NCBI GenBank assembly: GCA_963666515.2
Contig: OY762897.2
Span: 800,001-864,000, forward strand
Direction: 5' to 3'
Length of the DNA stretch: 64,000 nucleotides
From: Candidatus Binatia bacterium
GTDB lineage: Bacteria > Desulfobacterota > Binatia > UBA9968 > JAJDTQ01
Shown: piece by piece, positions 262 to 7,145 of the stretch
Layout of the letters: each line of letters opens with the position of its first letter
Numbering within the stretch: position 1 is the first letter of the stretch
The notes under the pieces: generated by a model
The model's input: the letters and a program-made list of their open reading frames with translations, nothing else
Told to the model about the DNA's origin: nothing
Database searches by the model: none
Program-made: the position numbers and the translations under genes

Positions 262-662
262 GGGTCGTTCTAGACACAAACGTCGTCGTGTCCGGTCTGA
301 ATTTTCCTGGGAACGAGCGGTTGGTCCTGGAGTTGAGCCTCCGCGGGCGTTTCGCAATGTACTTCTCGGCGTTCATCTTGGAAGAAATTCAAGGAGTGCT
401 AGGTCGCAAGTTCGGTTGGGGTCAAGACCGTGTATCGGAAGCTCGGCGCACTTTGGAAAGGGCCGCTACCGTCATCGAGCCCCGGCGGCTCCCAAATGTG
501 ATCGAGTCCAACGAAGCGGACAACCGTATCCTGGAGTGCGCGCTGGAGGCCTCCGCCGACTACCTGGTGACCGGCGACCGACGGCATCTGTTGCCTCTTA
601 GAGAACACCGGGGCGTCAAGATACTTAATGGCCCCCGTTTTCTGGCTGTTTTGGGCTATTAG
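258..662 (+). CDS. PIN-domain toxin (VapC-like)
   Basis: MRVVLDTNVVVS, DNRILECA, LVTGDRRHLL PIN acidic motifs. Confidence 0.9.
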   Translation: MRVVLDTNVVVSGLNFPGNERLVLELSLRGRFAMYFSAFILEEIQGVLGRKFGWGQDRVSEARRTLERAATVIEPRRLPNVIESNEADNRILECALEASADYLVTGDRRHLLPLREHRGVKILNGPRFLAVLGY

Positions 663-2478: not shown

Positions 2479-3567
2479 CTACAGGCCGTAGAGCGCCTTG
2501 GGATTGTGGTACAGGATGTTGTCCTTCCGCTCCTGGCTGACGTCGTCCATCTTCTTCAGGTCGAGGATGGCGTCCATCTCGCTGGACGGATCGGTGTGGC
2601 CGTAGTCGGTGCCGATGACCAGGTTGCCCTCGCCCGAGTACTTGAGGACGTAGGGGATGTCGTCGTTGGTCTGGCAGGTGACGTAGATGCCGTACTCCTC
2701 GAAGAGGTCCTTGGGGAACTCGCGCCCGGCCGCCTGGTACCGGTTCTCGCTCTCCAGGTAGATCCACGGCACCCACTGGGAGGAGGCTTCGATGAAGCCC
2801 CAGCGGAGGTTCGGGAAGACCTGGGGGATCTCGCTCATGATGAGGCCCAGGCACGACGTGACCGTAGGCGCCCGGAACATGGCGAAACGGCCCGCGGTGG
2901 TGGGACGGTAGGTGTCGCAGTTGCCGGGGTTGCCGTTGGCGATGTGCACGGCGACGGCCATGTCCAGGTCCGCGGCCGCCTGGTAGACGGGGTAGAAGTA
3001 CGGATCGCACATGTCCCGGTCCCCCTCCAGCGGCCGCATGCAAACCGCCACCGCGCCGTCCTCCTGGGCCTGCTTCATCTGCGCCACCGCTTCGTCCAGC
3101 GCCAGCACCGGCACCACGCAGGACCAGCGCAGCCGGCCCTCGCTCTGTCGGTAGATGTCGCCCAGCCAGCGGTTCCAGCTCCGGCACAGCGCGGCCTCCA
3201 CATCCGGCCGGGTGGTGATCTGCTCGATCCAGAAGGTGTTGTGGAGCACCTGCACGTCCACCCCCAGCTTTTCCATGTGGTCGAGCCGAAGCTGGACGTC
3301 GTCCAGCTCGCGCGCGGCCTGGGGCGACTCGACGTTCCGTCCGAACTGGTCCGACAGGTCCCTCAGTTGCTGCTCGCTGTAGGTGGGGAAGCGGAACCCG
3401 CGGATCTTTTCGTCGATGACCCAGTACTGGAGGGTGGGTTCCTGGGGCGAGGAGAAGAGTGTAGGGCGGAACTTCTCCTCCGACGGCTCCAGGTAGTCCC
3501 ACGTGTGTTCGGTTTCGATCACGTGGGCATCGGCATCGATGACCGGAAGGCTTTCCTGGCTGGACAT
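2479..3567 (-). CDS. Amidohydrolase_2 family metal-dependent hydrolase/decarboxylase
   Basis: IDADAH, AVHIA, IGTDYGH motifs; start at MSSQESL after AGGAG. Confidence 0.9.
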   Translation of the reverse strand: MSSQESLPVIDADAHVIETEHTWDYLEPSEEKFRPTLFSSPQEPTLQYWVIDEKIRGFRFPTYSEQQLRDLSDQFGRNVESPQAARELDDVQLRLDHMEKLGVDVQVLHNTFWIEQITTRPDVEAALCRSWNRWLGDIYRQSEGRLRWSCVVPVLALDEAVAQMKQAQEDGAVAVCMRPLEGDRDMCDPYFYPVYQAAADLDMAVAVHIANGNPGNCDTYRPTTAGRFAMFRAPTVTSCLGLIMSEIPQVFPNLRWGFIEASSQWVPWIYLESENRYQAAGREFPKDLFEEYGIYVTCQTNDDIPYVLKYSGEGNLVIGTDYGHTDPSSEMDAILDLKKMDDVSQERKDNILYHNPKALYGL

Positions 3568-3700
3568 GGCGCGTCTCCTTGATACGCGGCCCGGAGGATT
3601 CCGGGTCGTCAGGGTTTTTGCCCGGCGCCGCACGGCAGCCGGTGCTCAACCGTCAAGTTCGACCAAGAGCCCGCGTTTGTCAACCGCTACGCGGTGTTCT

Positions 3701-3761
3701 TCCGTTCGTCCTGAGCCCTTCGACAAGCTCAGGACAGGCGTAGCGAAGCGAAGTCGAAGGA
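3701..3761. repeat. Palindromic intergenic REP-like unit (CCTGAGC..TTCGACAAGCTCAGG type)
   Basis: gtcctgagc-ccttcgacaa-gctcaggac hairpin; reverse complement shares ccttcgacttcgcttcgct and caggacga with 34067-34093. Confidence 0.65.
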
Positions 3762-3790
3762 CCCCAATCTTCCCTGCCGTCGTATGCCGC

Positions 3791-4555
3791 TCAGTGCAGG
3801 TTGGCCCCGCCGTTCACGAGAATCGACTGGCCGGTGACGAAGGCGCTCAGGTCCGAAAGGAGGTACAGCGCGGTGCCCACCACGTCCTCGGGTTTCTCGA
3901 TGCGCTGCAGCAGGCGCTTGGCCGCTGACCGTTCGTAGTCCTCCAGAGCGGCGGCCGTGGGCTCCGGCTCGCTGGCGGTGGAGCCCGGCGCCAGCGTGTT
4001 CACCCGGATGTTGTCGGGGCCCAGCTCGCGGGCGAGCACCCGGCTGAAGCCCACCACCGCCGCCTTGGACACCACGTAGTGCATCATGCCGCCGCCGCCG
4101 TTGTAGGCCATGTTGGAGGCGATGTTGACGATGCTACCCTGGCGGCGCTCCTGCATGGCGGGGGCCACCGCGCGGCTGCACAGCCACAGCCCCTTGACGT
4201 TCACGGCCATTACCCGGTCCCACTCATCTTCCTGGATGTCCTGGAAACCCGAGCGCGTCACCGGCACGCTCATGAAGACCGCGGCGTTGTTGACCAATCC
4301 GTCGATCCGTCCGAAGGCTTCGAGGGTGGCCTCGGCCATGGCCCGGCAACTCGAAGAGTCCGCCACGTCCGTCTGGAGCCCGAGGCCCCGGCCGCCTTCG
4401 CGCGCTACCTCCCCGGCCACGGACTCGGCGGCGGCCCCGTCGATGTCCGCGGCCACCGGGATGCCGCCCTCCCGCGCGATGCCCAGGCAATAGGCGCGGC
4501 CGATGCCGTTGCCTCCTCCGGTGACGATGACGACTTTCTGATCCAGCAGACCCAT
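3791..4555 (-). CDS. SDR family NAD(P)-dependent oxidoreductase
   Basis: TGGGNGIG, LVNNAA, YVVSK (YxxxK); start MGLLDQK. Confidence 0.92.
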   Translation of the reverse strand: MGLLDQKVVIVTGGGNGIGRAYCLGIAREGGIPVAADIDGAAAESVAGEVAREGGRGLGLQTDVADSSSCRAMAEATLEAFGRIDGLVNNAAVFMSVPVTRSGFQDIQEDEWDRVMAVNVKGLWLCSRAVAPAMQERRQGSIVNIASNMAYNGGGGMMHYVVSKAAVVGFSRVLARELGPDNIRVNTLAPGSTASEPEPTAAALEDYERSAAKRLLQRIEKPEDVVGTALYLLSDLSAFVTGQSILVNGGANLH

Positions 4556-4682
4556 GATCGTTCCTTTCTTCGCGGACACGCGCGTAGAACCTCGCGGCAG
4601 GTTGCAACCATCGGGATTCCTTGTCAAGGCAGCCCTCGGCTGCAAGCCGCACCCATCACCGTGCGTCCTCCCCACCCCAACC

Positions 4683-4713
4683 CCCTGGACCCCGGGTCAA
4701 GCCCAGGGTGACG
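4683..4713. repeat. CGTCA-type REP palindrome
   Basis: ccctggaccccgggtcaagcccagggtgacg; near-identical to 40625-40655. Confidence 0.75.
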
Positions 4714-4765
4714 TGAACGTCGGCCACCTCTTCTACAATACCGCCCCGATTGCTAGTTTGTCCGT

Positions 4766-5215
4766 ATGGACCATCATGCAAATCTCCTTGAACGGAACCA
4801 GGACATCAGGGACCTGCTCGCCTCCGTCCATCGCATAGCCGTGCTCGGAATCAAGACCGAGCAGCAGGCATCCCAGCCTGCATTCTACGTGCCGCGGTAC
4901 ATGCACCGCGCGGGTTTCGACGTGATCCCCGTGCCCGTGTACTACCCGGAGGTGACGGAGATTCTCGGCAAGACGGTGTACCGCCGGCTGGCGGACATCC
5001 CCGGCGCGGTGGACTTGGTGAACGTGTTCCGGCGTCCGCAAGACATCGAGCCGCACCTCAATGACCTGCTGGCCGCGAAACCCGCGGCGGTGTGGTTCCA
5101 GTCCGGCATCCGCCATCAGGCGGTGGCCGAGACGCTGGCGCGGGCGGGCATCAAGGTGGTCCAGGACCGCTGACTCATGGTGGAACACCGGTCGCCGGCG
5201 GCGACCATCCCATAA
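4766..5215 (+). CDS. YccU-like CoA-binding protein, probable selenoprotein (in-frame TGA at 5171-5173)
   Basis: IAVLG, VDLVNVFR, AVWFQSGI motifs; VVQDR-TGA-LMVEHR matches the family C-terminal DRC..EH motif; hairpin GGTCGCC-GGC-GGCGACC follows; TAA at 5213-5215. Confidence 0.8.
5190..5206 (+). promoter_or_regulatory. Putative bacterial SECIS hairpin
   Basis: 7-bp stem GGTCGCC/GGCGACC with GGC loop; loop starts after 23 nt downstream of the TGA. Confidence 0.6.
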
Positions 5216-5231
5216 CCCTCTCCGGCCTGAC

Positions 5232-6110
5232 TCAACCCAGGGCCAGAATCCAGCACAGCAACACGGCCGCGGCCCCCAGGACGCCGATCCTGAGCTGCAT
5301 GCGTGCGTTCTCCGGATGGTCCGCGGTGGCGGCCCGCGCGCCGCCCACGGCTCCGCCCGCGGCCAGCCCCCAGAAGTGCGCCCACAGGTCCACGCGCTGG
5401 CCGCCGGTGCCGAGCATGCCGAGAATCGCCAGTCCGGCGGCCAGCGGCACCCAGGCCCGCCGTCCCCGCAGCCCGATGCGCCGCCGCCGCACCACCCCCG
5501 TCCCGCCCAGTACGCCCAGCGCGCCGAAGACCGCGGTGGAGGCTCCCACCGAGATGTGGTCGAAGCCGTAGGACCACGCGTTGCAGAAGTTCCCCAGCGC
5601 GCCCGCGCCCAGCACCAGGGCGGCCCCGACCCCCGGGCCTTCGGACCGGCAGACCGCGGTCAGGAAGAACACCATGGCCACCGCGTTGGAGCCCACGTGG
5701 GGCAGATCGGCGTGCAGGGTAAGGGCGGTGACCGTGCGCCACAGCTCGCCGCCGAGGATCAACTCGGCGGAGGCGGCGCCGCGCGCGACCCAAGGCACCA
5801 ACCCGTGGGTCCAAGCCTCAACGAAGAAGAACGCCAGCAGCCCCGTCGCCACCCCCACGCCGGTGTAGAGGGGCGCCTTGCCGGTCCACACCTGCTCTTC
5901 GGGCGCCGTGGCGCGGGTCTCGCTCTCGTAGTCCCAGAGTTCGGTTACCGCCTGCTCCAGGTGCCGCGAGGGAACCGACAGCACCCAGCCGTTGGAGGTG
6001 CGCTGCAGACGCGGAGCCAAGCCCTCCGCTTCCAGCACCAGCGCCCATTCCTCGGCCCGGCGCAGGTCCGTCGTCCTGCGTACGATGATTTCCCGTCTCG
6101 CCTGCATCAT
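5232..6110 (-). CDS. Rhomboid family intramembrane serine protease
   Basis: ELWRTVTALTLHADLPHVGSN, catalytic GAS(T), AHFWG. Confidence 0.88.
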   Translation of the reverse strand: MMQARREIIVRRTTDLRRAEEWALVLEAEGLAPRLQRTSNGWVLSVPSRHLEQAVTELWDYESETRATAPEEQVWTGKAPLYTGVGVATGLLAFFFVEAWTHGLVPWVARGAASAELILGGELWRTVTALTLHADLPHVGSNAVAMVFFLTAVCRSEGPGVGAALVLGAGALGNFCNAWSYGFDHISVGASTAVFGALGVLGGTGVVRRRRIGLRGRRAWVPLAAGLAILGMLGTGGQRVDLWAHFWGLAAGGAVGGARAATADHPENARMQLRIGVLGAAAVLLCWILALG

Positions 6111-6122
6111 GGCGTTCTACAA

Positions 6123-6177
6123 CGTCACCTCCGGGCTTGACCCGGATCAAGTCCGGAGCAGACTCCGGGGTCCAGGG
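6123..6177. repeat. CGTCA-type REP palindrome (composite)
   Basis: cgtcacctccgggcttgacccgga...ccggggtccaggg. Confidence 0.65.
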
Positions 6178-6281
6178 ATGGGGCGAGCGGGCCAGAATGA
6201 CGGGTGCCGGCATTCGGATCCTGGCGCATGGGACGTAGATACAAGACGCGACCAGCGGCTTCAACTTCCGCCGGCGCGGCC

Positions 6282-7145
6282 TCAGCGCCAGGTGATGAGC
6301 ACGATCCCGGTGACGATCAGCACCGCCCCGGCGGCCACCCGGGCGTTTACGGTCTCCAGGTCCCGCAGGAACAGGGCGCTGAAGAGCACGATGAAGAGCG
6401 GGTTGGTGTTGATGAGCGGCACCACCACGGATACGTCCCCCTCGCTCAGGGCGATGTAGCCCAGAAGCTGGGCGGTGGCCGATACCACCGCGGCGGTGCC
6501 GTAGAACGGCAGGCACTTCCGGTCCCCCTGGAAGGTGGCCCGCAACTGGCCCGTGGCCGCCAGGCTGAGGGAGAACACCGCCAGCGACGTGGTGATGGTG
6601 ACGGCGGTGGCGACGTAAGGGTTGGGCATGATCAGCAGCCCGGTCTTGCGGAAGTTCTGCGAGATGGCCGTGAGGAAGGCCGCCCCCAGCGGGTAGGCCA
6701 GGTGAATGGCCTTCCACTCGCTCTCCCCCTCGCGCCGGGTGGAGGTGAGCCACACCCCCACCACGCTCAGGAGCGATCCCAGGTAGACCGCGGCTTCGGG
6801 CCGCTCGCCCAGGAAGGTGAACGCCAGGGCGATGGCGAACAGCGGCGTCACGCTGCGCACCGGGCCGGCGCGCGACGCGCCCAGGCGGACGATGCCCGTG
6901 TAGTGGAGGAAGCGGACGATGGCGGGCTGGATCAGCCCGCTGATGATGAAGTACCAGGTGGCGTCGGTGTAGAGCAGGCTCAGCGGAAAGAACAGCCAGA
7001 TAGCAGTCCACAGCGCCACCGTGCTCAGCACGAACCCCATGAGCGCGGCCAGCGCCACGCTGGCGTAGCGCGAGCCCCGGCGCACCAGGATCGCCTCGGA
7101 GCCCCACGCCACCGCCGAGGTCAGGGCTAGGAACTCGGGACCCAT
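6282..7145 (-). CDS. EamA/DMT family transporter
   Basis: Ten hydrophobic segments in two repeats; FLGERP, FLRDLE. Confidence 0.85.
   Translation of the reverse strand: MGPEFLALTSAVAWGSEAILVRRGSRYASVALAALMGFVLSTVALWTAIWLFFPLSLLYTDATWYFIISGLIQPAIVRFLHYTGIVRLGASRAGPVRSVTPLFAIALAFTFLGERPEAAVYLGSLLSVVGVWLTSTRREGESEWKAIHLAYPLGAAFLTAISQNFRKTGLLIMPNPYVATAVTITTSLAVFSLSLAATGQLRATFQGDRKCLPFYGTAAVVSATAQLLGYIALSEGDVSVVVPLINTNPLFIVLFSALFLRDLETVNARVAAGAVLIVTGIVLITWR

Follow-up and report, generated by a model that had tools for sequence, protein, structure and literature searches.

The family PF13380 (CoA_binding_2) occurs in many bacteria and archaea and is represented by several crystal structures, with no function assigned to it; among the solved single-domain members in particular, we know of none that has an assigned function. 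These members include TT1466 of Thermus thermophilus (1IUK, 1IUL), PH1109 of Pyrococcus horikoshii (2D59, 2D5A, 2E6U) and a Klebsiella protein (2DUW). Chains of the 1IUK, 2D5A and 2DUW type are labelled CoA-binding proteins by their PDB depositors.

A covalent modification by CoA is described for YneT of Bacillus subtilis, a putative CoA-binding protein of 135 aa. According to the passage of PMC8127865 that deals with this protein, YneT is one of four proteins covalently CoAlated in B. subtilis spores, and the CoAlated residue, found by LC-MS/MS, is Cys126 (peptide TVIMDLC126IK).

A selenocysteine (Sec)-containing FAD-dependent CoA-disulfide reductase (TIGR03385, UGxP motif) is catalogued in Table 1 of PMC13188914. 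A Rossmann-like CoA-binding domain is also shared by succinyl-CoA synthetase alpha (SCS alpha), NDP-forming acyl-CoA synthetases (4XYL, 9Y43) and Pat acetyltransferases (9IT0), in which it is part of large multi-domain enzymes making or using thioesters. The Cys of the GPNCPG motif of SCS alpha is reportedly linked to catalysis in the title of Hidber et al. 2007.

The window, i.e., the whole analysed stretch of 64,000 nucleotides from a soil-type bacterium, contains a gene for a protein with the same domain, length and fold as TT1466, PH1109 and 2DUW (phmmer E 4e-29 for 1IUK). An in-frame TGA of this gene is aligned with a Cys in TT1466 (DRCLMVEH), PH1109 (NRCMMREH) and 2DUW (DRCPAIE). Whereas all solved PF13380 members are Cys forms, the window protein would carry UGA-encoded Sec, the SECIS hairpin being located inside the last 13 codons. 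Judging from the sequence comparisons presented below, UGA at 5171–5173 is very probably decoded as Sec. The explanation as a whole, a Sec-decoded CoA-binding protein with a CoA-directed redox residue, is considered likely.

The gene, its product and residue 136

The open reading frame at 4766–5173 (+ strand) encodes 135 aa and ends with GIKVVQDR, after which TGA follows at 5171–5173. When TGA is translated as U, the frame carries on as LMVEHRSPAATIP up to TAA at 5213–5215, and the product has 149 aa. The original prediction had described this end of the frame and its continuation to TAA correctly in every detail, and the perfect 7-bp hairpin with a GGC loop that it had placed just 3' of TGA was found at 5190–5206. 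The features of the locus are as follows:

4766–5215, + strand: putative selenoprotein gene of 149 codons plus TAA, with ATG at 4766 and the Sec codon at position 136; encodes a single-domain PF13380 protein
5171–5173, + strand: in-frame TGA, presumed to encode Sec as residue 136; among 67 orthologs, TGA in 26, Cys codons (TGC/TGT) in 41
5174–5212, + strand: 13 post-Sec codons, specifying the domain's final helix plus a short tail
5190–5206, + strand: candidate bSECIS-type hairpin with a G+C-rich 7-bp stem and GGC apical loop, −11.6 kcal/mol
5213–5215, + strand: true stop codon TAA of the frame read through TGA as U

In the four other Sec forms from this genus, the stop codon (TAA or TAG) occupies the identical position.

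The gene is the only one on the + strand between two pairs of minus-strand genes, encoding an amidohydrolase and an SDR upstream (2479–4555) and a rhomboid protein and an EamA transporter downstream (5232–7145); it is therefore likely to be transcribed alone. No sigma-70-like promoter was found upstream by a consensus scan. Among 48 flanking ORFs scanned, of 88 listed from 22 of the 80 most similar loci outside the order, no recurrent gene partner was seen. TctC, acyl-CoA dehydrogenase, molybdopterin oxidoreductase, PAS histidine kinase, and an AhpC/TSA-type redoxin with a DAO oxidoreductase are neighbours in two or three loci each.

The only domain recognized in the product is PF13380 (E 7e-34; 117 bits vs the cut-off of 22.8), which covers residues 23–141 of 149 and spans the TGA codon. 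By its sequence, the window protein is thus classified as a single-domain PF13380 CoA-binding protein of the TT1466, PH1109 and YneT type. Binding of CoA itself is putative and follows from the molecule names given by the PDB depositors and from the description of YneT. In the AlphaFold model (pLDDT 82, pTM 0.81), residue 136 is situated just past the last beta-strand (130–132), where the last helix (137–142) begins. The best Foldseek matches were 1IUK, 1IUL, 2D5A, 2D59 and 2DUW (probability 1.00, TM 0.75–0.82), followed by the CoA-binding domain of ADP-forming acyl-CoA synthetase. In an alignment of 40 sequences with 36–65% identity to the query, only four columns are invariant: A25, W110, Q112 and C136.

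Of all PF13380 matches in the window genome, that of this gene alone falls into a short open frame (152 aa). The other matches include six in open frames of 700–830 aa and a weak one, SucD. In the six long frames the domain lies at the start of the frame (contig 1, 448506, 1735676, 2134932, 2261830, 4051685 and 4345403); their probable products are NDP-forming acyl-CoA synthetases or acetyltransferases of the Pat type. One of the long frames is approximately 4 kb away from the cluster of sel genes. The PF13380 model also matches 11 of 14 control genomes.

With UGA read as Sec, the invariant Cys, which follows the last beta-strand and occupies the N-terminal end of the last helix, would be replaced by Sec. 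Residue 136 could then attack the thiol of bound CoA, or oxidized CoA, with formation of a covalent Se–S (or S–S) bond, a step that is inferred. Such a protein would be a CoA-directed thiol/selenol redox protein, acting for example on CoA mixed disulfides, and no passive CoA binder. Selenium would make the exchange with CoA quicker and more readily reversed.

The closest precedent for this chemistry is YneT. Both proteins are small, single-domain and CoA-binding (putatively so in the case of the window protein), and they share the V-x-D-x-C motif, Cys126 being located nine residues from the C-terminus of YneT. The D-L-C variant of the motif, as in YneT, occurs among the orthologs of the window gene as well. 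By motif and distance from the C-terminus, Cys126 of YneT would correspond to residue 136. YneT differs in being a Firmicute Cys form, and in the part of PMC8127865 concerned with it CoAlation is treated as a modification rather than a catalytic cycle. Because the matching Cys of YneT is CoAlated in spores, a mixed Sec/Cys–S–CoA bond is likely. For CoA-adduct chemistry at residue 136 as such, the chances are judged to be even. The catalytic or redox role proposed for this residue in the original prediction is thus plausible and supported by YneT CoAlation, while the role itself stays inferred.

The window protein can also be compared with the TIGR03385 enzyme as catalogued in Table 1 of PMC13188914. 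In both cases UGA is found at the position of a Cys (redox-active in TIGR03385), with a hairpin 16–37 nt downstream and G in the loop; the CoA thiol/disulfide couple is the substrate of the TIGR03385 enzyme. In contrast to the latter, the window protein has an unrelated fold, no flavin and no partner Cys in a UxxC or CxxU arrangement.

A further comparison concerns SCS alpha; its CoA-binding domain is Rossmann-like, as is the predicted fold of the window protein. PF13380 matches SucD of the window genome at residues 25–129 with a marginal score (22.7 bits vs the cut-off of 22.8). The matches of SucD and of the query both end at profile position 115, and Cys124 and Cys136, respectively, are located five residues earlier. 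The site is therefore compatible with equivalence to the GPNCPG Cys of SCS alpha, as far as a marginal Pfam match goes. When the family was compared with SucD by hhalign, the result (probability 0.4) covered an irrelevant stretch in which the Cys region was not aligned, and the family HMM built in this work gave no match to SucD.

Alternatively, Sec could be inserted without any reaction with CoA. In this case residue 136 would bind a metal, carry a persulfide or perselenide, or pair with a thiol on a different protein; the CoA pocket would serve only for regulation or anchoring. Neither a second conserved Cys nor a CxxU or UxxC motif was found, and the gene lacks a conserved partner; both observations agree with this alternative. 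It is opposed by the covalent binding of CoA to the matching Cys of YneT in vivo (as described in the corresponding part of PMC8127865), by the naming of the PDB chains as CoA-binding proteins and by the compatibility of the Pfam coordinates with the GPNCPG Cys of SCS alpha. Insertion of Sec without CoA chemistry is regarded as rather unlikely. A CoA-directed role of residue 136 is the reading preferred here.

Orthologs, hairpins and the Sec machinery

Orthologs were collected by six-frame searches, first in 61 related genomes and afterwards in the whole set of 123 genomes from the order. A close ortholog (E <= 1e-30) was found in 70 of the 123 genomes, a tally that counts the unpublished genomes G472, G474 and G489, which are used in no sequence-level claim. 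At the sequence level 68 loci were examined; 67 belong to the order, and the remaining one comes from a different family within the class. With one locus left out (L168, frameshifted mid-gene), 67 orthologs were retained. L168 (genome G491) runs out of frame after approximately residue 88 in a genus that is otherwise of the Sec form, and either a pseudogene or an assembly error could account for this.

In these 67 orthologs the site codon is TGA in 26 and TGC or TGT in 41 cases, always within the context VVQDR-[U/C]-LMV(E/D)HR. The TGA forms are distributed among three genera: 5 of 19 orthologs in the genus of the window, 17 in a genus of a second family and 4 in a third genus. TGA is thus aligned with a Cys codon and followed by conserved coding sequence, as the original prediction required of homologs, and it is no peculiarity of a single strain. 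The stop flags of L048 and L050, both Cys forms, correspond to their own true stops. Gene callers cut this gene short in at least 26 Binatia genomes.

Outside the order, Cys predominates. The 80 most similar species-level loci, mainly from MAGs of Acidobacteriota, Binatia and Gemmatimonadota, include 79 Cys forms and one with TGA (another Binatia record). A phylum sample of 401 genomes, the window's included, contained a close ortholog in 5, and the other 4 are free of the stop. In a library of 1.84 billion proteins, the site is spanned by 85 of 150 representatives, with Cys in 84 and an alignment gap in one. Together with the aligned Cys of TT1466, PH1109 and 2DUW, this bears out the placement of TGA at the conserved Cys of the family. 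Two further library entries end exactly at ...VVQDR. One library representative of 133 aa (P0135) has an ABC-ATPase-like N-terminal part, continues with the C-terminal half of the family and ends at ...VVQDR; this may be a chimeric or frameshifted call hiding another Sec-form lineage.

Coding downstream of the site is conserved. The frame stays open for 10–13 codons past TGA in all 26 TGA forms. The first six codons past the site encode LMV(E/D)H(R/K) in every one of the 67 orthologs, with 5, 1, 4, 4, 2 and 7 different codons in use at the successive positions. Synonymous variants (CTG/CTT, GAC/GAT, GAA/GAG, GGA/GGG/GGT, CCA/CCG) are present within each Sec clade.

Published criteria for bSECIS elements comprise an apical loop of 3–9 nt on a stem of 4–16 bp, G in the first two loop positions, a distance of 16–37 nt from UGA to the loop, and a minimum free energy of at most −7.5 kcal/mol (PMC13188914, Fig. 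2A and section 5). The window hairpin at 5190–5206 consists of the stem strands GGTCGCC and GGCGACC and the loop GGC, which begins 23 nt past UGA. Its energy, when folded alone, is −11.6 kcal/mol, and equally good folding was obtained in 2 of 200 shuffles. All four criteria, as given in these parts of PMC13188914, apply to it. The second Sec clade has another hairpin, CCGGCG/GTT/CGCCGG, with a spacing of 20 nt and an energy of −8.3 to −11.1 kcal/mol (RNAfold, four 17-mers). All 26 Sec forms possess one of these two types. That 26 genomes have TGA, the open frame past it and a similarly placed hairpin in common goes far beyond chance.

When the bSECIS criteria were applied uniformly, with stems evaluated plainly as contiguous, all Sec forms but one (25 of 26) passed, as did 5 of the 41 Cys forms. 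The borderline Sec form, L051, has a G-U pair; it passes with RNAfold (−8.3 kcal/mol) and fails the plain stem evaluation. Some Cys forms also pass, so that in DNA as rich in G+C as this the criteria favour Sec forms but are not exclusive to them. No relevant Rfam family was matched around the hairpin. A function of the hairpin as an intrinsic terminator was ruled out: a terminator and promoter scan of 4500–5500 gave no site, and the hairpin lacks a T-tract.

Both hairpin types contain the heptamer CCGGCGG at different structural positions, 7 nt apart relative to UGA. MAFFT could align the two types only on this shared heptamer, and they are not positionally homologous. The presence of CCGGCGG in both hairpins (window, 5190–5206; L053, 1413–1429) may be due to chance in G+C-rich coding DNA or to a preference of the Binatia SelB.

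The window genome (4.67 Mb, 2 contigs, 98% complete) contains the machinery for Sec insertion, the presence of which was to be checked according to the original prediction. The genes selA (587 bits), selB (371 bits) and selD (381 bits) and the tRNA-Sec gene (selC, 73 bits) all scored above the curated cut-offs. The first three are located side by side on the minus strand of contig 1 (4043412–4047708; loci L001, L002 and L010), and tRNA-Sec is encoded apart from this cluster (1984970–1985060). The selD gene has one in-frame TGA, so selenophosphate synthetase would also be a selenoprotein. Above the cut-off, selA is present in 110 of the 123 genomes of the order, three unpublished genomes (G474, G489 and G505) being counted in this tally. 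In one Sec-form genome (G477; 93% complete, 670 contigs), which is an incomplete assembly, selA was not found, and a selD fragment is located at a contig edge.

Sec insertion at this locus could be realized in the usual order. The hairpin at 5190–5206 would recruit SelB with Sec-tRNA(Sec), and the ribosome would place Sec at UGA 5171–5173 instead of terminating. Translation would then continue through the last helix to TAA.

Evolution of the site and decoding of UGA

A maximum-likelihood tree was built from residues 1–135 only, with exclusion of the trait codon and of the tail constrained by the hairpin. It contains 65 rows, two partial sequences being omitted. The five Sec forms of the window genus fall inside a genus clade (SH-aLRT 99) whose other members are Cys forms. 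In the other two genera, 19 Sec forms and one Cys form make up a separate clade (SH-aLRT 93). The minimum number of state changes on this tree is 3. A single Sec group was rejected by the AU test (delta lnL 99.1, p 0.0004), the group having been named after the tree was seen. On these sequences, the tree requires Sec to have been gained from Cys twice independently, with a separate hairpin sequence and register in each case, and to have reverted once. As there are just two evolutionary events, the 26 Sec forms are not independent counts.

The only Cys form of the second Sec clade is locus L161 of genome G497 (hairpin at 295–311, minus strand), in which the stem is intact and the loop is CTT vs GTT in the Sec forms. 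This is exactly the picture to be expected if Sec had reverted to Cys and the base contacted by SelB had then been lost. Neither selA, selB, selD nor tRNA-Sec was found in G497, which is an incomplete assembly. G497 does contain an FdhA-like gene that has an in-frame TGA, and the related genome G498 carries all four sel genes on a single contig, in a stretch of approximately 15 kb. For these reasons loss of the Sec trait was dropped as the cause of the reversion in G497, and an unbinned contig is the simpler and more likely explanation.

These results bear on the nature of the residue inserted at UGA. UGA could be read through as Cys or Trp by a near-cognate tRNA, or the code could be reassigned, with no selenium involved in either case. 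Low-level read-through of UGA occurs in bacteria, and the inserted residue cannot be told from sequence alone. However, 7 of the 26 Sec forms have a second TGA at the end of their tail, and TGA is the stop codon of many Cys forms too; TGA has thus not been reassigned. The full Sec machinery in the genome is a further argument against a standard amino acid at this position. A hairpin answering to the SECIS criteria is found in both lineages, and the loop G is gone in the revertant, neither of which is predicted by simple read-through. Insertion of Cys or Trp is therefore considered highly improbable.

Still less credible is the assumption that TGA is a real stop of a 135-residue protein lacking the last helix and the Cys, i.e., of a decaying pseudogene or shortened variant whose downstream similarity reflects recent ancestry: standard gene calling does end at TGA, and two library representatives are stored as ORFs ending at ...VVQDR, but 10–13 codons are kept in frame in 26 of 26 TGA forms from three genera, down to approximately 57% protein identity and with synonymous substitutions, the same codon has changed twice independently, a truncated protein would lack one of the four invariant residues, and the actual case of decay, L168, is different in being frameshifted mid-gene.

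Decoding of UGA as Sec, which had been proposed from the window sequence, is favoured on every side: by the machinery, by the Sec/Cys pairs, by downstream coding and by the bSECIS criteria.

Place among selenoproteins and meaning for the family

No entry for PF13380, CoA_binding_2 or YccU is present in Table 1 of the 2026 catalogue, which covers 119 families and subfamilies (PMC13188914). A keyword search gave no entry in the covered text of the 2022 review by the same group. None of the NCBIfam models matches the window protein, and the family is unmentioned in the deep-Sep paper and in four of its supplementary files. A search of full-text literature for a selenoprotein combined with YccU or CoA-binding protein found nothing relevant. 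GOS_A, a hypothetical protein from the 2008 ocean survey, is listed in PMC13188914 without a conserved domain; since the present family is recognizable by Pfam, GOS_A is unlikely to belong to it, on the basis of that entry. The absence of this family from the classic lists, which the original prediction had surmised, holds for Table 1 of the 2026 catalogue, for NCBIfam and for the deep-Sep supplements. As judged by Table 1 of the catalogue, NCBIfam and deep-Sep, the window protein is regarded as a genuine member of a selenoprotein family not catalogued before.

The bacterial selenoproteome would thereby gain one more family. Its recoding mechanism is ordinary, and its value is in what it tells about the function of the family. 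In bacteria, Sec occurs almost only at redox or nucleophilic residues. A Cys-to-Sec exchange that took place twice independently would thus label the active residue.

On a tentative view, which is held with less than even confidence, the single-domain PF13380 proteins (YccU, YneT, TT1466, PH1109) are unrecognized CoA-specific thiol/selenol oxidoreductases, for which the name ‘CoA-redoxins’ could be used. If so, they would cycle via a covalent Cys/Sec–S–CoA intermediate. They might de-CoAlate proteins, reduce CoA disulfide or CoA persulfide, or keep CoA safe during oxidative stress or dormancy. The two switches to Sec in Binatia would then be a natural experiment exposing the catalytic residue.

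Taken together with the CoAlation of YneT, as described for spores in PMC8127865, the Sec site leads to a concrete and testable idea of a protein that makes and resolves covalent bonds with the thiol of CoA. On the evidence of sequence conservation and of the recoded codon, residue 136 would mark the chemically active site of a widespread family.
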